In this document: in pieces, positions 3,971 to 46,892 of the stretch | Position numbering within the stretch: the stretch's first letter is position 1 | Layout: the number at the start of each line of letters is the position of its first letter | Source of the DNA: Nostoc sp. DedSLP01 | GTDB taxonomy: Bacteria > Cyanobacteriota > Cyanobacteriia > Cyanobacteriales > Nostocaceae | DNA length: 64,000 bases | Reading direction: 5' to 3' | NCBI GenBank assembly: GCA_034530875.2 | Contig: JAVRCJ020000012.1 | Span: 1 to 64,000 of the forward strand | Notes under the pieces: model-generated | The model's input: the letters and a program-made list of their open reading frames with translations, nothing else | Told to the model about the DNA's origin: nothing | Databases searched by the model: none | Program-made: the position numbers and the translations under genes

Positions 3971-4019
3971 TGTAGTATCCCCTTGACACCATGTAATTTA
4001 TGTATTACAAATGTAATAT
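3971..4019 (+). promoter_or_regulatory. Sigma70-type promoter overlapped by TGTA(G/A/T)TA direct repeats, candidate repressor operator
   Basis: TTGACA at 3983-3988; TGTAGTAT (3971), TGTAATTT (3992), TGTATTAC (4001), TGTAATAT (4012). The same motif recurs at 12179 and 12189. Confidence 0.55.
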
Positions 4020-4030
4020 GAAAACAAAAG

Positions 4031-4097: not shown

Positions 4098-4178
4098 GGG
4101 GTCGCGATTGGCGTTCGCCTACTCCGAAACCAACAAACGGACGGTTGTAGGATTCGGGTTCAATTCCCGACGACTCCA
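4098..4178 (+). ncRNA. Mini tmRNA-like tRNA(Ala) domain with no mRNA-like domain
   Basis: GGGGTCG/CGACTCC+A acceptor with G3:U70 and A73; unpaired D-loop-like segment; CCTAC/GTAGG helix; TCGGG-TTCAATT-CCCGA T arm. Confidence 0.6.
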
Positions 4179-4182
4179 TTTC

Positions 4183-4354: not shown

Positions 4355-4563
<209 letters not shown>

Positions 4564-4606
4564 CTAAATAATTCGTAATGGGCTGCGCCCCGCTACGCTA
4601 ACGTAA

Positions 4607-4834
<228 letters not shown>

Positions 4835-4847
4835 AACGTTTATTTAT

Positions 4848-5028
4848 CCGTGCCCTGACAGAAGAAGCATACATACACATTTATAACGGCCCTAAGGTAG
4901 TAAAATTCGAGCGATCGAACTAGCGACAGTATGATTTCTAAATCTCTCGCAGATTTAGCATACGTGCCCACTGCCAATAATTGGTAAGAGCGACCGTAAG
5001 CTGTAAAAAACTTCTTAAACTTGTACGG
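4848..5028 (+). ncRNA. Scaffold RNA unit B carrying a permuted 23S rRNA H68-H71 mimic
   Basis: Scaffold arms present. TATAACGGCCCTAAGGTAGTAAAATTC at 4882-4908; TGCCCACTGCC...GGTAAGAGCGACCGTAA near the 3' end. Confidence 0.65.
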
Positions 5029-5043
5029 TTTAATTCAAGAATT

Positions 5044-5187
5044 AATTCCGCGCCCTAACTTGTAAAGCATACACACTACTATCCGGAAACGGAATACAGG
5101 TTCGACTCCTGTTGCTCCCGTTAATGGGAGCATAGCCAAAATGGTAAAGGCAAATGTGAAAACTGCTTTGCTAACTTGTGCGGAATT
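5044..5187 (+). ncRNA. Scaffold RNA unit C: circularly permuted tRNA (YrlA-like architecture)
   Basis: Order is variable arm (TCCG-GAAA-CGGA), T arm (ACAGG-TTCGACT-CCTGT), loop-closed acceptor (TGCTCCC-GTTAAT-GGGAGCA), D arm (GCC-AAAATGGTAAA-GGC). Terminal stem AATTCCGCGC/GTGCGGAATT. Confidence 0.75.
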
Positions 5188-5315
5188 CCAATTATTTAAA
5201 TTGTATTTATCTATTAACCCTGACTCAATTATCAATACGGAGGTGAGTTCAATGATGTTCGCAAATTTATGTTTAAGCAAAAATCAATCTTTAAAACTAT
5301 ATTTAAACAACTTGA

Positions 5316-6086
<771 letters not shown>

Positions 6087-6091
6087 AATTT

Positions 6092-6221
<130 letters not shown>

Positions 6222-6402
6222 TTAAAAATAAGAATTCAGAATTCAGAATTCAGGAGTCAGAATTCAGTAATAAAAAAGCTTTATATCTACAGGATTGAGG
6301 TTGTTTGTTTGATGTTACTTCAAATCTGCGGTAGTTACAAAGCTGTTTTTTGGAAATAAAAACAAAACTAATTATTGCTATTTGGTATGGGTAGAGGCTG
6401 CT

Positions 6403-6783
<381 letters not shown>

Positions 6784-6784
6784 T

Positions 6785-6900
6785 GGTGATTAGGGACTAG
6801 GGACTGGTGACTGGGGAATAATTTGATTAAAAATACTATTTCCCAATACCCAATCCACAGTCCCCAATTCCCACTTCCCAGTCGCCAATCCCCAACCACT
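6785..6900. repeat. STRR heptamer tracts in inverted arrangement
   Basis: GGGACT(A/G) repeats followed by CCCAAT(A/C)C repeats; similar tracts at 7020-7085, 36740-36880 and 40200-40330. Confidence 0.7.
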
Positions 6901-6908
6901 TGGCAGTT

Positions 6909-8535
<1,627 letters not shown>

Positions 8536-8674
8536 AATACTTAACTTATCCCACTCCTAAAAGGGATTTAGCTTGCGAATGGAGGGTGAGATCCCTCGTT
8601 TACATACAAAATGGTTTGTAGAGACGTTGCAATGCAACGTCTCTACTTCTATTCATTGAAGTAGTTGAAAGAGA

Positions 8675-9058
8675 TTAGTTTATGCAAATAAGGTACATCC
8701 TTACGGTTTTGACTACATTAGTTGTGTTTTTATACCGTATTGTCCATTGCTTATCACTACTAGGGTAACTAGCTATCAGAGTAATTCCATCAATTTGTGA
8801 TGATATGTTAAAAGGTGGAATCAATCCACCGTTGATAACGAAACCACTAGGACAGTTGTACTTATAAATGTAAGTTCCTCCTGGAGCACCACCGAGGGAT
8901 CCTACATCAGGAAAGCTATAGTACTTTATATCTGCTGTACCTGTATTCCCTCCTGTATAAAGTGTTATGGCAGATGCACCCGAAGCAAGTAAAATATTGG
9001 ACGCTAATACACCAAAGAAGGTGGTTGCTATAGATAATAGATTAAATTTCATTTTCAA
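8675..9058 (-). CDS. Hypothetical secreted protein
   Basis: Signal peptide ending ASA; CPSG...GG motif and a C-terminal Cys. Confidence 0.6.
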   Translation of the reverse strand: MKMKFNLLSIATTFFGVLASNILLASGASAITLYTGGNTGTADIKYYSFPDVGSLGGAPGGTYIYKYNCPSGFVINGGLIPPFNISSQIDGITLIASYPSSDKQWTIRYKNTTNVVKTVRMYLICIN

Positions 9059-9669
9059 TTCCTCAGCTTAATTTTCAAGAGATGCTGTATAGCAATCCTA
9101 TTTTTAGTTGTGAAAAATATCAGTCGTGGCTGTTAACTGTTAACAGTCTGGGCAGCAAAATTTCATAAATGATTTAAGACTGCTATATAATATCTGTTTA
9201 ATACAAATAATTATTTCATAAACTACTATTAAAATTTACTTCATGAAAATAAAATAAAATAAAACAACACGCATATACATATTAATAAGAACGAATTTAG
9301 TCAATGTTATTAAGTATTACTATCAAAAATTAAATATTATTTGATTTATTATTATTTTCTAAATGCTTCAGTAAATATTTAAGTAGTGGCGTGACAAGCC
9401 TAAAATGTTGCATTAGATTTTGTAGGTTGGGGAACCATTGCGTTGGACGGGTTTCCCAGCTTAAAGCAAGTGGCGTTTGAGGAACGCAACCCAACCTACG
9501 CTATTGCACTATTTTAGCTATGTCAGTCCACTACGATTTAAGGTTTACTTTATAAATAAACTCTTAGACTTTGGACTCTTGACAACCCTAGCCTTGATTT
9601 AGCGTGCCAGTTCTGTAAGTTCTAATAGTGATACATTCTGTAATGTTCATTCTTGGGAAACAGTGACTG

Positions 9670-10386
9670 ATGTATGTAGTAATTGGTGGAGCCGGAATGA
9701 TGGGGCTGGGGTTAGCTCAGCAGTTATTGCAACTGGGTCATACAGTTGCAATTATTGATTTAGACCCGCTAGCCTGTCGCTTTGCGCGCGAAAAAATTGG
9801 GGTAATGGCATTTGAGGGAAGTGCAGTCAGCACTACGGTACTTCTGGAAGCGGGAATCAAACAAGCAAATGCGGTCGTTGCTGCACTCAGAGATGATGCG
9901 TTGAATTTAGCGCTGATTGTGTTGTCCAAGAGCTATGGGATTTCCCATATTGTCGTGCGGATGCGCGATCGCGAATTTATGGAAGCCTATCGTCTTGCTG
10001 GAGCGAGTCACATTATCAGCACGATTGATTTGGCAATTGCAACTATGGCGAATGCCATTGAATACCCGGAAGTTGAGTCGATGATGCACTTTGAGCAAGG
10101 GCAAGTCGAGGTGCTGAAGTTGCCCGTTCCAGCCGATTGCTATGTCGCAGGTCGCACCGTTGCCCAAATTGCTCAAGATCCGCGCTTTCCTACAGGTTCG
10201 CTGATTATTGGCTACCAGTGTCATGCCTGCGCGAATCTAGAGATTCCCAACGGCAATACTGTTCTGGAAGCAAACTCGACTATCCTGGTCGTCACTCGCC
10301 CCGAACTAGTCCATACTATGATTGATTACCTTGGCATTCACGCTAGTCATCTTCCAACGATAGAAGTCTCTCATCCAAATCTTTGA
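9670..10386 (+). CDS. trkA: TrkA/RCK-domain protein
   Basis: VVIGGAGMMG Rossmann motif; TrkA-N and TrkA-C domains. Confidence 0.88.
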   Translation: MYVVIGGAGMMGLGLAQQLLQLGHTVAIIDLDPLACRFAREKIGVMAFEGSAVSTTVLLEAGIKQANAVVAALRDDALNLALIVLSKSYGISHIVVRMRDREFMEAYRLAGASHIISTIDLAIATMANAIEYPEVESMMHFEQGQVEVLKLPVPADCYVAGRTVAQIAQDPRFPTGSLIIGYQCHACANLEIPNGNTVLEANSTILVVTRPELVHTMIDYLGIHASHLPTIEVSHPNL

Positions 10387-11974
10387 TGTAGGGCTGCACC
10401 AAATCTTCTGGAACAATTCGTTTGCGGAGGGCATCGCTAACGGCAACCTTTTCCGCTAGAAGCAATCGCCGTCGAATTCTATCTAGTCCGCTGCGATCGC
10501 CCGCTAGTTTACCTGCCCGATATTGATTGTAGAGATCCCGCAGTACCCGTTCCGACTGTGCTACCCGCGCCTGATAGGATGCCCATAGCTCCTCATACAC
10601 TGCTTTCGGCAATACGCCCGATTTTAGCAAACTATCTAACTCATCCTGAGCAGCTTTAGCAGCAATTAATTGAATCTGCAACTGCCCAGTTTCCTGGATA
10701 GTTTCTGAAATACGGCTGATGTTGAGCCGTTTGATTAACCAGGGTAAGGCTAATCCCTGTACTACCAGGGAAAATAAAACGGAACCGAACACCAGCTCGA
10801 TCAACAGTTCCCGTCCTGTTAGGGATAAAGGAATAGCAACTGCTAACGCCATCGAGAGAGAACCTTTAATATTGCCTAAAACCAAAACGTGTTGCCAGGG
10901 TAGAGGAATGGGGCGATCGAACCAGCGCAGTCCTGCTAATAACGAATAGACTGAGATAATCCGTCCCAGTTGATAGGCTAAAATGACGAACAAAATGGAG
11001 GGTAAAATTCTCCACAGCGTCACAGGGTTAATTTCAATCCCAATTAGCAGGAAAATAAATGTATTGACGCTAAAACCAGCGTATTCCCAGAAACTCAACA
11101 AGGTAATTCGATCCGAGGCAGACGAACTGCGAGGAAGCCCAAGATTGCCAAAAATAAGTCCGGCGATGACCACAGCCACCGCACCCGATACACCCAAAAA
11201 TTGCCCAATTTGAAAGGTTCCTAATGCTAGAGCGACGGTTAGCAAAAGGCTACTCAACGGATCGTTTAAGCGAACCAATATCGGCAAGCTTAAGTAGCCT
11301 AAGATTGCTCCCACAAGTCCCCCGCCTAAGGCAACTACAAGCAGTTCCTTGATACCTTGTGCAGCAGTGAGAGAGCCTGTAGCATAAATGGCTAAAACCA
11401 AATTGAATGATATTAGAGCAGCCGCATCGTTAAACAGCGTTTCTCCTTCAACAATAGTGGTCAATCGAGAAGGCACGCGGATCTCTTTAAAAACTGCAAT
11501 CATCGACACAGTATCCGTGTTTGCTAGAATGACTCCAATCAGTACAGCAGGAATCCAGTCTAGTCCCAGCCCAAATTTAATCGAAACCGCGATAATTGCC
11601 GAAGAAAAAATAGAGCCGGGACCTGCTAAAAGGGCGATCGCTTTAAAAGTGCTGCGAAGACGGCTGATATCAGTATTGATAGATGCCTCAAAAATCAGAA
11701 TCGGCAGAAAAAGGTTTAATACTAAGGACGGATCTAACCCAATGCGATGCGACCAAAGTTCTGTAATGGGTAACCCTGCCAGCACTAAGCCTGTTACATA
11801 AGGAATTCGTAGTCGCTGAGTTATCAATGCAACAGCAGTTGCAATCAGTAGCAAAATAATCAAAATGATGACCAGTTCTGGAATGCTTCCTGCCGTTTGG
11901 CTAGCTACAGCAGAATTGCTGTCCAAAGGAGTTTGTTGCGCTACTATCCATCCCATTGCCGATCCTCCTTCCAT
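10343..11974 (-). CDS. CPA1 family Na+/H+ antiporter (NhaP-like)
   Basis: LFLPILIFEA, NTDTVS, VEGETLFNDA motifs; many transmembrane helices. Confidence 0.9.
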   Translation of the reverse strand: MEGGSAMGWIVAQQTPLDSNSAVASQTAGSIPELVIILIILLLIATAVALITQRLRIPYVTGLVLAGLPITELWSHRIGLDPSLVLNLFLPILIFEASINTDISRLRSTFKAIALLAGPGSIFSSAIIAVSIKFGLGLDWIPAVLIGVILANTDTVSMIAVFKEIRVPSRLTTIVEGETLFNDAAALISFNLVLAIYATGSLTAAQGIKELLVVALGGGLVGAILGYLSLPILVRLNDPLSSLLLTVALALGTFQIGQFLGVSGAVAVVIAGLIFGNLGLPRSSSASDRITLLSFWEYAGFSVNTFIFLLIGIEINPVTLWRILPSILFVILAYQLGRIISVYSLLAGLRWFDRPIPLPWQHVLVLGNIKGSLSMALAVAIPLSLTGRELLIELVFGSVLFSLVVQGLALPWLIKRLNISRISETIQETGQLQIQLIAAKAAQDELDSLLKSGVLPKAVYEELWASYQARVAQSERVLRDLYNQYRAGKLAGDRSGLDRIRRRLLLAEKVAVSDALRKRIVPEDLVQPYIKDLDERLLSLEDD

Positions 11975-12203
11975 AAAGTGCTTTCCTCAAAGAGAAGTTG
12001 AAGAATTGACTACTGTTTGAGTTTACAGGAGGGCATACCCTGGTGGATGCAGTGTAATTGGATGAATGTTAATGAAGCTAAAACACGATGTTGGGCTTTG
12101 TTGAGCGATTATCGCGCATCTCGGCTCAATACCTGCATTCGAGATTGCGAAATCTCTGTTTTCATCTGTTGCAATTTTTGTAGTATATTGTATTATATGA
12201 ATA

Positions 12204-12413
12204 TCCTGCGTGTCCCAACTCGTGTGAGCCTACATACTAGTACGAGAGGAAGGTAACGCTGCCAAATGCAGTGCGCGTTTGCGAACGAGGAGTGCGAAGA
12301 ACCTGGAAAGTCGGCTTAGAAGTAGCCATCTTTGAAAGAGTGTGTAACAACTCACCAGCGGAGTCCCTCTAGTAACTGAGAAAACGCAATGCTCCACCAA
12401 CTTGCACGCGGGA
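12204..12413 (+). ncRNA. Scaffold RNA unit F carrying sarcin-ricin loop plus GTPase-associated-centre mimic
   Basis: TCCTGCGTGT/GCACGCGGGA stem; CTAGTACGAGAGGA at 12237-12250; CTGGAAAGTCGGCTTAGAAGTAGCCATCTTTGAAAGAGTGTGTAACAACTCACCAG at 12303-12358. Confidence 0.75.
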
Positions 12414-12622: not shown

Positions 12623-13456
12623 ATGACTAACATATTTCAGCTAATCAACCAAATTGCTAACGCAGAAGGACAGTTGTGTAATACTCAATTTCTTGCACCT
12701 TGTGTAAAAGGTGGACGAGTTCGCACGCGAGTAGCAGGGATGGTCTACACTTTCAGACCAAAGCCTAGTAAATTTGAAGGTTGGGGTATCTTTCAAGCTG
12801 TGGATGAGAAAACAGCAATGGTTGTGGAAGAGGCAGATTTACCTCAAATAGCCGAATACCTGCAACACTTTCCCCAAATACGGTTGCGGTTAGCATACCA
12901 ATTGCAAGGACAAACTTGGTTAGCGTACCCTGTAAATGAAGCAGATATGCGTCAACGGTTGCACGTAGTTAAACCGATCGCCATTCATTTAGTAAGCGAA
13001 GGTATCATCTTTGACCAGATTATCGCCCGCTGGAATGGAAATTCCTGCTGGTTTGAAGAAATCGATCGCCGCACAGATCCCGCTATTGTTGAAACTCTGC
13101 AATCTGCGCTTAAGGAACTCGTTCCCGTTGAAGAATTGCAGTTCAAAGGTATGACGCCAGAAATTCGCACAGTGTATGAATTAGCAACTGCGCGGATTGA
13201 GGAATTCGATCGACCCAAACAGGATGAAAAGCGGCTAAGAAAAGCATTGCAGATGGGCGGCGGCGAATTAAAGCAATTTCAAGACCGCGGCGACTACTGG
13301 ACAGTTGACTGGACAACCGCTGATGGCGTTCGCCACAGTAGTGCGATCGCTAAAACTGACTTGACTGTAATCAGTTCTGGTATTTGCCTAAGTGGATACG
13401 ATCGCGACTTCGACTTGCAATCTTTAGTTGCTGTCATCGAACAACAAGAGTGGTGA
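12623..13456 (+). CDS. Hypothetical protein upstream of ThiF/E1
   Basis: 277-aa ORF with C-terminal SSGICLSGYDRDFDLQSL; no family recognised. Confidence 0.8.
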   Translation: MTNIFQLINQIANAEGQLCNTQFLAPCVKGGRVRTRVAGMVYTFRPKPSKFEGWGIFQAVDEKTAMVVEEADLPQIAEYLQHFPQIRLRLAYQLQGQTWLAYPVNEADMRQRLHVVKPIAIHLVSEGIIFDQIIARWNGNSCWFEEIDRRTDPAIVETLQSALKELVPVEELQFKGMTPEIRTVYELATARIEEFDRPKQDEKRLRKALQMGGGELKQFQDRGDYWTVDWTTADGVRHSSAIAKTDLTVISSGICLSGYDRDFDLQSLVAVIEQQEW

Positions 13457-13546: not shown

Positions 13547-14185
13547 ATGAGTGTCTTTTTTCACGAACAGCTTTACCGCAGCAATGCTGTGATGGCAAAA
13601 TTGAAAAACTATCCTGTAACAATTTGTGGGGCGGGAGCATTAGGAGCTAATATTGCGGAAAACTTGGCTCGGTCTGGTTTTGAGAAACTTACAGTCATTG
13701 ACCGCGATCGCATTGAGGAACGTAACCTTTCCACCCAACCTTACTACCGTTCTGATGTGGGAGCATTCAAAGCCAAAATCTTGGCGAACAATTTATATAG
13801 AGCAATTGGTACTAAAGTTGATGCCAAAACCAAAGAATTGACATCAGCAAATGTAAATCAATTAATTCAAGATAGTCAGCTAATTATTGATGTTTTTGAC
13901 AATAGTATCGCCCGTCAAATACTAAAAGATTATGCCGATAAATTTAGCATTTCTTGTCTTCATGTTGGATTAGCGGCTGATTATGCAGAAGTGATTTGGA
14001 ATGAAGTTTATCGCGTGCCTTCTGAGGTAAATGATGATGTTTGCGATTATCCCTTAGCGCGAAACTTAGTAATGTTAACCGTTGCTGTAGCATGTGAAGC
14101 GATTGTCTCATTCATTGCCACAGCAGAACAACGTAACTTCACCATTACCTTAAAGGATTTGACTGTTCAATCTCTGTTTTTTTAG
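13547..14185 (+). CDS. ThiF/MoeB/E1 family adenylyltransferase
   Basis: ICGAGALGA, IDRDRIEERNLSTQ, DVGAFKA, DVFDN; Cys in DDVCDY. Confidence 0.88.
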   Translation: MSVFFHEQLYRSNAVMAKLKNYPVTICGAGALGANIAENLARSGFEKLTVIDRDRIEERNLSTQPYYRSDVGAFKAKILANNLYRAIGTKVDAKTKELTSANVNQLIQDSQLIIDVFDNSIARQILKDYADKFSISCLHVGLAADYAEVIWNEVYRVPSEVNDDVCDYPLARNLVMLTVAVACEAIVSFIATAEQRNFTITLKDLTVQSLFF

Positions 14186-44422: not shown

Positions 44423-46892
44423 ATTAAACTCAACGAAGCTGTCACCAACTCCGTTGGTCTTCAAAACCGGACGTGAGACTTTCACCTCATCCGGCTCCTC
44501 AGTGATTTGGTGTTATTGTTAAACATACCTCATTACCCATTTATCCTGAATTTTTCAGTGTTTTTGGTGGGCTTAGGCTTGGCGCTATTGCATCCAGATT
44601 GGTTGCCTGACTGCTATCGTTAGCAGTTTTTGTATCGTGGCAATGTCTGTGAAGGAGTTGCCTGTTGTCGTATGAATCCTTTCCACCTTGCGATTTTGGG
44701 ATTCTATGGTCAACTTCCATCACGTCACCTTCTCGGAAAAACATTTTGCAGTGGTTACACTTCCCTTTTTGCTTTTTTAGAAGTTTTGAAACTCTAATCG
44801 GCATTTCTGGATTGTTTCCCATTCTTGTACTCCAGTAAACCAGGTTTCCGTCGTAAGGTGACGATTCGCTTTTAACCTTGATATGTCGCACTATAGGGGT
44901 GGTTGCATGGTCAAGTAACCTCAATTCTGTTACTTCTCCCTTTTTGGTTGTTGCGAATACCCAGTTATTACCGTTTATGGATTTCCAATACTTCTTGGCA
45001 ATCCATTTTCCACCTTTTGTTGAGTGGCGACGTTTTGCCCAAGCTTTTAGCTTTTGGTATATGAGGTTATCAATTTCTTTGTAAGCTTCCTTACTTACAA
45101 CGGTCGCATAGTAATTTGCCCATCCCCTAATAATTGGGTTAAGTCGGTTAATTAGTGCCGCTTGCGGTGCTGCCTTATGGGATTCAATAATACTGGCGAT
45201 TTCGTCGTAATGTACCTTTTGCTTTTCTTTGCTTGGGGTGATGATTGTTTTAAAACCTAGTAAATTCCCTTTTGTATCTTTACTCGACTGATTTTTTCCT
45301 TTCGGAAATTGTCGGATATTATAACCGAGGAAATTAAACCCTTCCTGTTCTTGCTCGTACTTATTTAAGGTATGAGTAAGTCTTGTTTTACTTGGTTTTA
45401 GTTCAAGACCCATGCCTTCTAACCATTCAGAGATGATGCTCTGGCATCTTTGGACTACGGACACATCTTTGTGGAGAATTACAAAGTCGTCGGCATAACG
45501 AATTAAGCTTATCGATCGGATGTTGTCTCTTTTATTGCCAGGTAGGGTTTCCGCGTACTGTTTAATTCGTTCTTCCATTCCGTGGAGGGCGATATTTGCC
45601 AATAATGGAGAAATTACCCCACCTTGTGGCGTACCCTCAGATGTCGGAAACAGTTGCTTACCATCCATCACCCCCGCTTTTAACCATGCTCGAACTTGTC
45701 GGCGGATGGTGGGGGATGTATTTAATTTTCTTAGCAGTGCTTCTTGGTTGATACGGTCAAAGCATTTGGCAATGTCTGCATCAAGCACGTATTTAGCTTT
45801 CTGCTTAATTGCGTTGAATATTGCTTGAATCGCATCATGGCATGAGCGTCCGGCTCTAAACCCGTATGAGTTGGGTTCAAATCGCGCTTCCCATTCTGGC
45901 TCTAGTGCCAGTTTTACCAGCGCTTGCAAGGCTCGGTCTTTCATTGTAGGTATGCCCAAAGGTCGCTTCTCTTCCATCCCAGGCTTGGGAATCCATACCC
46001 GCCTGGTTGGGCTGACCTTTGTACCCAAGTTTAATTTTCCAGTAAGCTCTAGACGTTGCTTTGGAGTTAGCGATTTAACGCCATCTACACCAGCCGTCTT
46101 TTTCCCCTGGTTATCCTGGGTGACTCTACGAACCGCTAAAGCTCTTGCTGACCATGACTTCATCAGCGTCTTTTGGAGTCTGCGATATGCTTTTACATCA
46201 CCACGGATAGAGGCTTGATAAATTCTCTTTTGGAGCTTATACACGCTACGCTCTAGCTTGCGCCAGTTAATAGAGTGCCATTCCACCATCAGTTGTTTAG
46301 ACTGTGTATTAGACATATATACTCACTACTTGGTACTTTATCTTCCAAATCACCGTAAGTCTGTTTGCATATTCTGGGCATTACCCCAGTCATTCGCTTT
46401 TGACTTAATCTCTCCTACTCGCTGCATCCGGTTAGCACCTACTCAGGGATTTGACCACCTGAGAGCATACGAGAGGTTACTTCGTTCCAAATGACCATAC
46501 TGTGCATCTTTAGAGTGACACTCTTCGCCGGGTTTATAGGAAGTGCATATTGGTCAAAATACAACTTGCCAACTCCTTATCCTGTGCCTTTTTGGCTCCA
46601 GCGCATTAAGCCTTTTTCGCTGGTCAACGCTAACGACGATTCTGATGTGTCTTCAAGCTTTTGCTTTACTCATGGATGCCTTGCTCGATGGATACCAGAT
46701 TAGGCTACCAGTAGTACCACCTTTTCACCCCGCTTTACGGATTGATGACTAGTCGCTACCGCAGGGGTGATGCTTTCAACACTGCACTTGCGTGGTAGGA
46801 TTCTCACCTACAAGGTCATTTAGTTGTCTGGCTAATGAAACCAGCTAACCGTCCCTAAGTATTTCTACTTATTTAGGCTAAACGAATCGCAC
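44423..46892 (-). mobile_element. Group II intron, 2470 nt
   Basis: 5' GTGCG; domain V GAGCCGGATGAGGTGAAAGTCTCACGTCCGGTTT; domain VI; 3' end ...TTTAAT. Removal restores ...GRY-T-LQQ. Confidence 0.93.
44541..46316 (-). CDS. ltrA: Intron-encoded reverse transcriptase/maturase with HNH endonuclease
   Basis: RPLGIP, GTPQGGVISPLLANI, RYADD, RGWANYY, CNHC...DH...HRHCH. Confidence 0.95.
   Translation of the reverse strand: MSNTQSKQLMVEWHSINWRKLERSVYKLQKRIYQASIRGDVKAYRRLQKTLMKSWSARALAVRRVTQDNQGKKTAGVDGVKSLTPKQRLELTGKLNLGTKVSPTRRVWIPKPGMEEKRPLGIPTMKDRALQALVKLALEPEWEARFEPNSYGFRAGRSCHDAIQAIFNAIKQKAKYVLDADIAKCFDRINQEALLRKLNTSPTIRRQVRAWLKAGVMDGKQLFPTSEGTPQGGVISPLLANIALHGMEERIKQYAETLPGNKRDNIRSISLIRYADDFVILHKDVSVVQRCQSIISEWLEGMGLELKPSKTRLTHTLNKYEQEQEGFNFLGYNIRQFPKGKNQSSKDTKGNLLGFKTIITPSKEKQKVHYDEIASIIESHKAAPQAALINRLNPIIRGWANYYATVVSKEAYKEIDNLIYQKLKAWAKRRHSTKGGKWIAKKYWKSINGNNWVFATTKKGEVTELRLLDHATTPIVRHIKVKSESSPYDGNLVYWSTRMGNNPEMPIRVSKLLKKQKGKCNHCKMFFREGDVMEVDHRIPKSQGGKDSYDNRQLLHRHCHDTKTANDSSQATNLDAIAPSLSPPKTLKNSG

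Follow-up and report, generated by a model that had tools for sequence, protein, structure and literature searches.

The locus at 12204-12413 on the plus strand of the window, that is, of the whole 64,000-nt stretch of Nostoc DNA analysed here, raises the question of whether two parts of 23S rRNA, the sarcin-ricin loop (SRL) and the H42-H44 arm of the GTPase-associated centre (GAC), have been brought together in one small RNA by selection and, if so, for what role. The answer reached is that the RNA is a real, selected mimic of the factor-binding centre of the ribosome and one of a panel of framed mimics encoded beside a Ro60-fold protein. Its role is read, tentatively, as that of a decoy for enzymes that attack this centre.

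Two parts of 23S rRNA in one small RNA

The RNA gene as a whole (12204-12413, +) has a conserved core at 12208-12409, described by covariance model R1, with a length of about 205 nt and the SRL placed 5′ of H42. In the window copy, the ends given in the first-pass annotation, 12204 and 12413, form the last base pair of the terminal stem. The 5′ strand of an end frame common to its sibling RNAs (12204-12234), which comprises the terminal stem, an internal loop and a 4-bp helix at 12226-12229 and is the predicted binding site of a Ro60-like protein, is followed by the SRL hairpin (12235-12255) with its bulged-G motif, a GAGA tetraloop at 12244-12247 and a closing stem formed by 12235-12237 with 12253-12255. 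Next to it lies a variable spacer hairpin that is not rRNA-like (12257-12273), with two-sided change at 6 of 6 pairs in all three alignments, and then a linker helix (12275-12280 with 12382-12387; two-sided change at 3-4 of 6 pairs) carrying the H42 arm. The arm itself (12287-12369) mimics 23S H42-H44 with a base helix, kink-turn 42 (12294-12302 with 12359-12364), a three-way junction, H43 and H44 (12303-12358), in which A1067 corresponds to 12318, A1095 to 12346 and a base triple to 12323/12343/12350, while the 3′ strand of the end frame occupies 12388-12413; all of these features are on the plus strand. Residue numbers follow E. coli 23S rRNA and were mapped onto the RNA via the Rfam alignment.

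The SRL core had been placed at 12237-12250 and was found there, and the resemblance of 12288-12364 to H42-H44 is supported by a match of 12303-12358 to positions 1093-1148 of the Rfam LSU rRNA model (distal H42, H43 and H44) with 51.4 bits against a gathering score of 50 (E 2.1e-12). The host assembly holds only the 3′ end of its 23S gene, from 68 nt before the SRL, and is missing the GAC, so the 23S genes of 10 relatives were used for comparison. Identity to these over distal H42, H43 and H44 is 42-44 of 56 nt. The two elements, put about 1600 nt apart in 23S by the first-pass annotation, lie 1473-1561 nt apart in 10 of 10 relatives, where the SRL comes second, as against about 75 nt in the RNA gene, where it comes first. 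The replacement of CCAG/CTGG by CTGG/CCAG described in the first-pass annotation holds against the 23S of 6 of the 10 relatives but not against the other 4, which read CTAG/CTAG. A second CCCTCTAGTA (12365-12374) is indeed present near the 3′ end, yet the permuted second SRL helix at which it had seemed to hint was ruled out, since its CCUC pairs as the 3′ strand of the H42 base helix, with two-sided change at 4 of 4 pairs, and is followed by a variable linker, CTAGTA, kept in only 70 of 101 sequences.

The SRL 12-mer occurs at four places in the genome, namely the true 23S, the RNA gene and two sites without rRNA-like context, and by itself is weak evidence of rRNA mimicry. Folding of the single sequence was not significant (z -1.63, with 12 of 200 shuffles folding equally well). 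The joint arrangement of SRL and GAC is far beyond chance, because the covariance model matched over its full length at 79 of 79 pattern loci submitted to it. With its order reversed relative to 23S, its non-rRNA linkers and its compensatory changes, the RNA is neither a colinear 23S gene nor a randomly decaying pseudogene. Apart from the LSU fragment, Rfam has no family that covers it. A protein-coding reading of the minus strand (a 56-aa ORF at 12230-12400) was rejected because the lengths of the 57 copies compared are spread over all three frames (27, 7 and 23).

Covariation, tertiary signature and distribution

Pairing was scored at 46 pairs named from the rRNA structure plus the alignment, for which slid controls were 28-58% paired. 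Paired cells made up 95.4% in 30 BLAST-found copies, 96.4% in 101 distinct model-aligned copies and 95.4% in 78 metagenome copies, with two-sided change at 19, 26 and 33 of the 46 pairs, respectively, figures to be read with the alignments (A2, A6 and A7) having been fitted to the proposed structure, the later ones leaning towards the model, and with the sequences being related rather than independent. Substitution at random with respect to pairing, which the first-pass annotation had set against its own proposal, is not what these compensatory changes describe. Unconstrained folding with RNAalifold recovered the terminal stems, the spacer hairpin, the linker helix and H42-H44; the SRL closing stem was absent from this fold, the SRL being mostly non-canonical, and was 97-99% paired across the three alignments. 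Terminal helices 1 and 2 were 92-98% paired, with two-sided changes. Compared with one same-genus 23S, the 56-nt core carries 13 differences with 0 of 13 pairs broken (simulated chance 2.2e-4), including two-sided swaps at 1054-1105, 1058-1080 and 1092-1099, with 1072 changing alongside.

The triple 1072-1092-1099 and the pair 1082-1086 covary in rRNA itself, and a literature search on this covariation returned nothing usable. Among 191 pooled copies, from which 4 rows that were truncated or without H43/H44 had been left out, the triple reads U.U-A in 175, C.C-G in 10, U.U-G in 3 and C.U-A in 3, and U1072 was never seen together with a C-G pair. C1072 is described as contacting C1092 and G1099 (PMC2952862), and the 23S of the relatives reads C.C-G in 10 of 10. 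The switch amounts to about three events on a quick tree, and an independent-pairs test on 2 pairs was not significant. The pair 1082-1086 is swapped to C-G in 3 of 78 metagenome copies. The triple 1071.1091-1100 is G.G-C in 57 of 57 copies, U1060 is kept in 56 of 57, A1088 in 57 of 57 and the 3′ GA of the kink-turn in 57 of 57. As the GTDB set had been picked on SRL and GAC letters, these residue counts were taken from an unselected set of 57 intact copies and from the metagenome set, in which the GAC was unselected. The sequence features expected of an L11- and L10-binding GAC fold (the triples, 1060-1088, 1082-1086 and the GA/GA of the kink-turn) are all present, and such a fold is predicted for the RNA.

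Conservation differs between the parts of the RNA. Of 57 intact full-length copies not chosen on the motif, 56 have the SRL core without change, whereas among truncated duplicates without the 3′ frame it is mutated in 2 of 3. Such decaying duplicates lie about 1.7 kb from an intact copy at L046, L047 and L048. In the arm, conservation is highest in kink-turn 42 and at the junction residues and looser at the loop tips, with A1067 kept in 157 of 191 copies and A1095 in 179 of 191. The spacer hairpin holds a 65-nt insertion in some copies. One copy from the class of Acidobacteriota noted below (L222:1501-1715) has lost both H43/H44 loops with the SRL and kink-turn kept. At L280:731-929, the SRL and kink-turn are kept and H43/H44 are replaced by a plain hairpin. 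The first-pass proposal of selected three-dimensional mimicry rather than debris is upheld by the compensatory pairs, the joint switch of the triple and the invariance of the SRL, and there is very little doubt in our view that the RNA is a selected rRNA mimic.

By BLAST, 51 of 101 related genomes carry the element (38 of 61 within the genus and 13 of 40 in other families, a few of them partial at contig ends), and the covariance model gave full-length matches in 11 of 151 genomes sampled from the phylum. Scanning GTDB genomes for the pattern yielded at least 120 loci, with about 220 estimated; 79 of the loci were run through the covariance model. Among the matches listed, 114 were cyanobacterial, 4 were from an ‘uncultured bacterium’, 1 from Acidobacteriota and 1 from Actinomycetota, assignments in which binning errors are possible; the class of the Acidobacteriota record held 2 full-length copies in 101 genomes, one of them that record. 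Within 28 same-genus loci conservation is sharply bounded, with a median identity of 0.91 in the RNA against 0.56 upstream and 0.58 downstream. Scanning metagenomes for the frame together with the SRL led to 116 loci and 117 matches, which by regular-expression classes were 86 with SRL and GAC, 13 short and SRL-only, and 18 truncated, unclassified or due to chance; some of the copies are on contigs of 58-69% GC. The existence of the short SRL-only form (13 of 117 metagenome matches) marks the SRL as the core module. These framed RNAs of about 111 nt were seen on high-GC metagenome contigs (L239, L259, L269, L271, L303, L329, L332 and others), with no Ro60-like gene in the flanks examined and many near-identical copies. 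Viral contigs gave no match to the joined SRL-GAC pattern or to the Ro60-like protein.

Framed siblings, a Ro60-fold neighbour and the tRNA-array setting

Beyond what the first-pass annotation had described, the analysis found a common end stem, five sibling RNAs, a Ro60-fold neighbour and a tRNA-array context. The end-frame pattern occurs at 6 places in the 8.57-Mb genome, all of them within 4392-12410 of the window, and the cargos of the five siblings, all on the plus strand, are two tRNA-like domains, one YrlA-like permuted tRNA, one minimal hairpin and one permuted 23S H67-H71. The tRNA-like cargos are carried by the framed RNAs at 4392-4509 (ARAGORN: Asn-att) and 6097-6216 (ARAGORN: Ser-tga), the permuted tRNA by that at 5048-5183 (Rfam YrlA E 1.1) and the short hairpin by a 70-nt RNA at 6913-6982 that has little besides the frame. 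Rfam YrlA scored E 1.5e-4 to 6e-3 in the loci of four relatives, all under the gathering score. In the framed RNA at 4848-5028 the cargo mimics the 23S domain IV core (H67-H71) in circularly permuted form, H69 being opened at the loop; this cargo shows modest BLAST similarity to the 23S of a relative (E 0.026 to 1.5e-5), and its H69 stem is paired in 97 of 102 cells, with two-sided changes, among 17 aligned copies. The ‘tRNAs’ that ARAGORN calls at 4414-4488 and 6119-6193 sit inside the common frame and are likely to be mimics, for which reason annotation pipelines will miscall them.

Across the fetched loci 283 distinct framed RNAs were gathered. Cargos that could be assigned to neither tRNA nor rRNA are found at L033:11061-11180 (-), L215:3348-3489 (-) and L212:2483-2749 (+), and none of these three framed RNAs had an Rfam match. 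A separate short RNA at 4098-4181 (+) resembles the tRNA-like domain of tmRNA without its message part (Rfam tmRNA 33 bits, E 1.9e-10, below the gathering score), with similar matches in L214 and L215.

Between the siblings and the RNA gene lies a gene for a 476-aa protein (7105-8535, +) whose predicted model is a Ro60/TROVE fold consisting of a helical ring and a vWA domain. Its sequence similarity to phage Ro60, a protein identified via PMC12135203, is weak (phmmer E 0.0014), its identity to solved Ro60 structures amounts to just 15-19%, and the Pfam TROVE profile gave no match, with only vWA families appearing at E up to 0.001. The model has a pLDDT of 89 and the best 12 Foldseek matches were all Ro60, with TM scores of 0.63-0.70, while the residues D299, S301 and S303 of the DxSxS motif of the vWA domain are invariant in 72 sequences. 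As modelled, the protein would have the architecture that defines Ro60, a helical-repeat ring closed by a vWA domain with DxSxS. Among 101 genomes, in which kin are not independent, 50 have both the RNA and the Ro60-like gene, 1 has the RNA alone, 10 have the gene alone (10 of 60 with the gene, by the query used) and 40 have neither; the gene is within the flank at 46 of the 93 loci with long flanks. When metagenomes were searched with a single distant Ro60-like protein, no match resulted. By analogy, the framed modular RNAs beside the Ro60-fold gene are likely to work like Y RNAs.

Neighbours were counted as genes within the fetched flank at the same 93 loci. Arrays of at least 6 tRNAs surround the RNA at 43 loci, genes for KptA, NADAR, RNA ligase, PARG or macro proteins are near it at 30, and the main contexts are all missing at 7. 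Three further neighbours, each in 38 of 93 loci, are a small conserved protein of 67 aa with a conserved terminal Gly (4631-4834, +), a conserved 277-aa protein directly downstream of the RNA (12623-13456, +) and a ThiF/E1-like adenylyltransferase (13547-14185, +; Pfam ThiF E 5e-27). The first of these had no Pfam, NCBIfam or PADLOC match and is a likely ubiquitin-like partner of the ThiF protein. The 277-aa protein, with two invariant cysteines (C27 and C255), had no match in Pfam, NCBIfam, PADLOC or Atlas, and its model, of low confidence (pLDDT 54), had no fold match. Together the three may form a ubiquitin-like conjugation module. The same operon of Gly-ending protein, ThiF and 277-aa protein was also seen in the 66%-GC contig L243.

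An extra ribosomal protein L7/L12 is encoded at 6403-6783 (+), a paralogue 45-48% identical to the housekeeping copy, and an extra L12 gene is near the RNA at 10 of 93 loci; L10 and L11 are both single-copy in the genome, with no extra gene for either. An EF-Tu gene is near the RNA at 5 of 93 loci, where it stands at the end of a tRNA array within 6 kb downstream of the RNA (L118, L124, L149, L169 and L170); in the L124 genome it is a second copy apart from fusA-tufA and in the L169 genome one of two copies. A group II intron domain V/VI was found by Rfam at 44423-44500 (-). No cognate toxin was found near the RNA loci.

A sigma-70-like promoter site, with its -35 box at 12169 and its -10 box ending at 12196, precedes the RNA (12169-12197, +) and is overlapped by two direct repeats; 3 such sites were found where 2.1 were expected. 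The first of the repeats is the exact 8-bp TrcR site described for the trn operon of Anabaena (PMC10272220). The gap between the two repeats, which lie over the -10 box, is 1 nt, whereas in the published TrcR motif two 9-nt repeats covering the -10 box and start site are separated by 2-3 nt (PMC8421152). The TrcR 8-mer occurs 219 times in the genome and the tandem pattern twice, and the repeat is found within 40 nt upstream in 37 of 103 copies of the RNA. The other genomic site of the tandem pattern (G000:C8:2714, -) is followed by a short hairpin and is possibly another member of the regulon. Three similar direct repeats at 3993-4021 (+), ahead of the sibling cluster, probably form a second promoter with the same regulation.

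Two studies of a related organism yielded RNA-seq contigs that span the RNA and continue into the genes downstream of it; they end about 22 nt (X7) and about 17 nt (X13) before 12226, near the predicted start, with X8 and X14 ending further inside. These contigs, from a comparison covering 7 of 24 listed runs, give a weak hint of expression, being contigs only, in which DNA may be present. Their lack of coverage over 8758-12200 was left out of account, since the genes there may be missing from the organism concerned. High depth at 12308-12375 in the soil runs X3 and X5 was set aside as real 23S rRNA with loose ends rather than the RNA gene. No terminator-like site was found for the RNA gene.

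Possible roles and known systems

The role that we favour, though we would put it somewhat short of an even chance, is that of a decoy resembling Y RNAs that baits enzymes which cut or modify the factor-binding centre of the ribosome. The RNA would be transcribed from a repressed promoter of the TrcR type or within a tRNA array, as the partial motif match and the weak RNA-seq hint suggest, and the neighbouring Ro60-like protein would bind its end stem and protect or display it. The H42-H44 arm would load the L10-L12 stalk and L11 of the host, so that the particle resembles the real site, and under translation stress SRL nucleases or glycosylases and H44-modifying enzymes would be drawn to the RNA instead of to ribosomes. 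The co-encoded ligase, KptA and ADP-ribose hydrolases would repair the damage, and the arrays would supply spare tRNAs. A decoy is favoured because the cargos copy surfaces attacked by toxins and the neighbours undo RNA breaks and ADP-ribosylation: H44 is ADP-ribosylated by Tre23 (PMC8661411), titles cited in the same paper speak of toxin nucleases cutting the SRL and the 23S A-site region, and tRNA cleavage occurs in the same stress (PMC8421152). Nuclease inhibition has been proposed as one possible role of YrlA (PMC7790460). The relaxed loop tips (A1067 and A1095, with both loops gone in one copy) are awkward for a bait based on H44. Also counting against the decoy are the canonical Ro60-binding motif of Y RNAs, seen in just 1 of 191 copies, the search for a cognate toxin near the loci, which found none, and the 10 of 60 gene-bearing genomes in which the query used turned up no RNA.

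Close behind the decoy, as a less probable role, comes a sponge or tether for translation factors, which is suggested by extra genes for L12 and EF-Tu that accompany the RNA and by an L10 site better kept than the rest of the arm. Loaded with L10-(L12)n and L11, the RNA would bind translational GTPases (EF-G, EF-Tu or relatives). It would then either store or throttle these factors in stress or dormancy or link them to the Ro60-like protein and the enzymes for ubiquitin-like tagging, just as Ro60 is tethered to PNPase by a Y RNA. Variation at A1067 and A1095, which we take to be EF-G contacts, speaks against it, as do the SRL-only forms, which have no stalk site, and a genome without extra L10 or L11, and it leaves the repair genes unexplained. 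L10 is reported to span the junction to Kt-42 (PMC2952862), the part of the arm that is kept best, and Y RNAs are described as tethering Ro60 to an effector through their mimic domain (bioRxiv 312249). The extra L12 and the EF-Tu genes, the latter a second copy in the 2 genomes checked, fit factor binding equally well as a decoy, and the decoy and sponge or tether roles may coexist. A related proposal, unlikely in our estimate, is that the RNA is a miniature, free-standing GTPase centre that would recruit an L12 stalk of its own and interact with elongation factors away from the ribosome, as one of a Ro60-carried panel copying tRNA, H67-H71 and the SRL.

An RNA that with L10-L12 and L11 acts in trans, triggering GTP hydrolysis by factors off the ribosome or replacing a damaged factor site, would account for the presence of both RNA halves of the GTPase centre in one molecule with their tertiary contacts conserved, and for the dedicated L12 encoded at some loci. 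GTPase activation, however, normally needs the whole ribosome, and the spacer hairpin between the halves accepts a 65-nt insertion in some copies. Such an activator is quite improbable. It is also very doubtful that the RNA is a cis-acting leader sensing free L10, L11 or a factor and controlling the genes for the 277-aa and ThiF proteins: its own promoter-like site and the run of RNA-seq contigs into the downstream genes would suit a leader, but 43 of 93 loci lie among tRNA genes with varied neighbours, the ends of the RNA pair together as in the stand-alone siblings, and the RNA stops about 210 nt ahead of the start codon. More implausible again is a sponge role towards thiopeptide antibiotics, whose binding site is L11-H43/H44. 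The L11 platform is kept and the related regulon is induced by ribosome-targeting antibiotics, but changes at A1067 block thiostrepton binding, and a binding role is weakened because that position is A in only 157 of 191 copies and replaced in the other 34; the SRL, the most invariant part, would moreover be superfluous. Recombined rRNA debris without function, with which the unremarkable folding of the single sequence and the patchy spread (51/101 and 11/151) might agree, deserves practically no credence, being refuted by the covariation, unless this is an alignment artefact, and being at odds with the sharp conservation, the triple switch and the mutation of the SRL in truncated duplicates (2/3) as against intact copies (1/57).

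Full-text literature searches, outside whose coverage lie subscription papers and supplements in which a prior mention is possible, found no description of a Y-like RNA that mimics rRNA, and no free RNA copying the catalytic-factor sites of the ribosome was found in the literature searched. To our knowledge, the Y RNAs described so far are tRNA mimics and the described mimics of rRNA are mRNA leaders. In the parts of the sources concerned, ROT/TROVE platforms are mentioned with a tRNA-like partner only (PMC7824862), and PMC7159879 holds nothing relevant to an rRNA-mimicking RNA. If confirmed, the decoy or tether role would mean that natural decoys or tethers exist in cells for the most conserved site at which toxins and factors act on the ribosome, and a function could be assigned both to an uncharacterised Ro60-like family and to the tRNA arrays that cyanobacteria induce under stress. 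As an evolved minimal SRL-plus-GAC construct, the RNA also lends itself to testing what portion of the ribosome is required for binding or activating EF-G and EF-Tu.

Several known systems share features with the RNA. Its likeness to the GAC and SRL of 23S (RF02541) extends to the kink-turn, the base triples and the SRL core, from which it differs in standing alone, in having its SRL 5′ of H42 where 23S has it about 1550 nt 3′, in having a U.U-A triple where cyanobacterial 23S has C.C-G, and in its relaxed loop tips. L10 leaders are cis elements of ribosomal-protein operons and are without an SRL. The RNA likewise mimics the L10 site on H42-H44 but is closed-ended, changes contexts and has an SRL. 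The long tRNA arrays and TrcR regulon of cyanobacteria (PMC8421152, PMC10272220) have in common with it the arrays, HNH, RNA ligase, a PARG-type protein and the 8-bp operator; the repeat spacing is 1 nt here, no rRNA-like RNA, Y RNA or TROVE protein is mentioned in the portions of those accounts consulted, and the main text of PMC8421152 has 0 occurrences of ‘TROVE’, ‘Y RNA’ and ‘23S’. The rsr-yrlBA-rtcBA operons (PMC7790460) likewise combine a Ro60-type protein, several small RNAs, RNA repair genes and stress control, but RtcR, RtcA and RtcB are not among the common neighbours here and the Gly-ending protein, ThiF and the 277-aa protein are found instead.

There is also a likeness to Y RNA and YrlA (RF02553; PMC4201824; bioRxiv 312249), which share with the RNA paired 5′ and 3′ ends with an internal loop, a central mimic of a translation RNA and clustering beside a Ro60-fold gene, one of the siblings being itself YrlA-like. 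Of the features that define a Y RNA, the end stem with internal loop and a nearby, co-occurring Ro60-fold gene (46/93 loci, 50/51 genomes) are present. The Ro60-binding motif GNCGAA(N)G, described near the 5′ end of Y RNAs (PMC4201824), occurs in 1 of 191 copies of the RNA and 0 of 283 framed RNAs, which have another conserved frame, and Rfam YrlA gave no match on 12204-12413 at E up to 5, the cargo being rRNA-like, here the SRL and H42-H44 of 23S where that of Y RNA and YrlA is tRNA. As it lacks these two defining features, the Ro60-binding motif and a tRNA-like domain with a YrlA score, the RNA was not filed as a Y RNA. What is new is the rRNA-mimic cargo, while the carrier, a Ro60-fold protein with small RNAs, varies a known kind.
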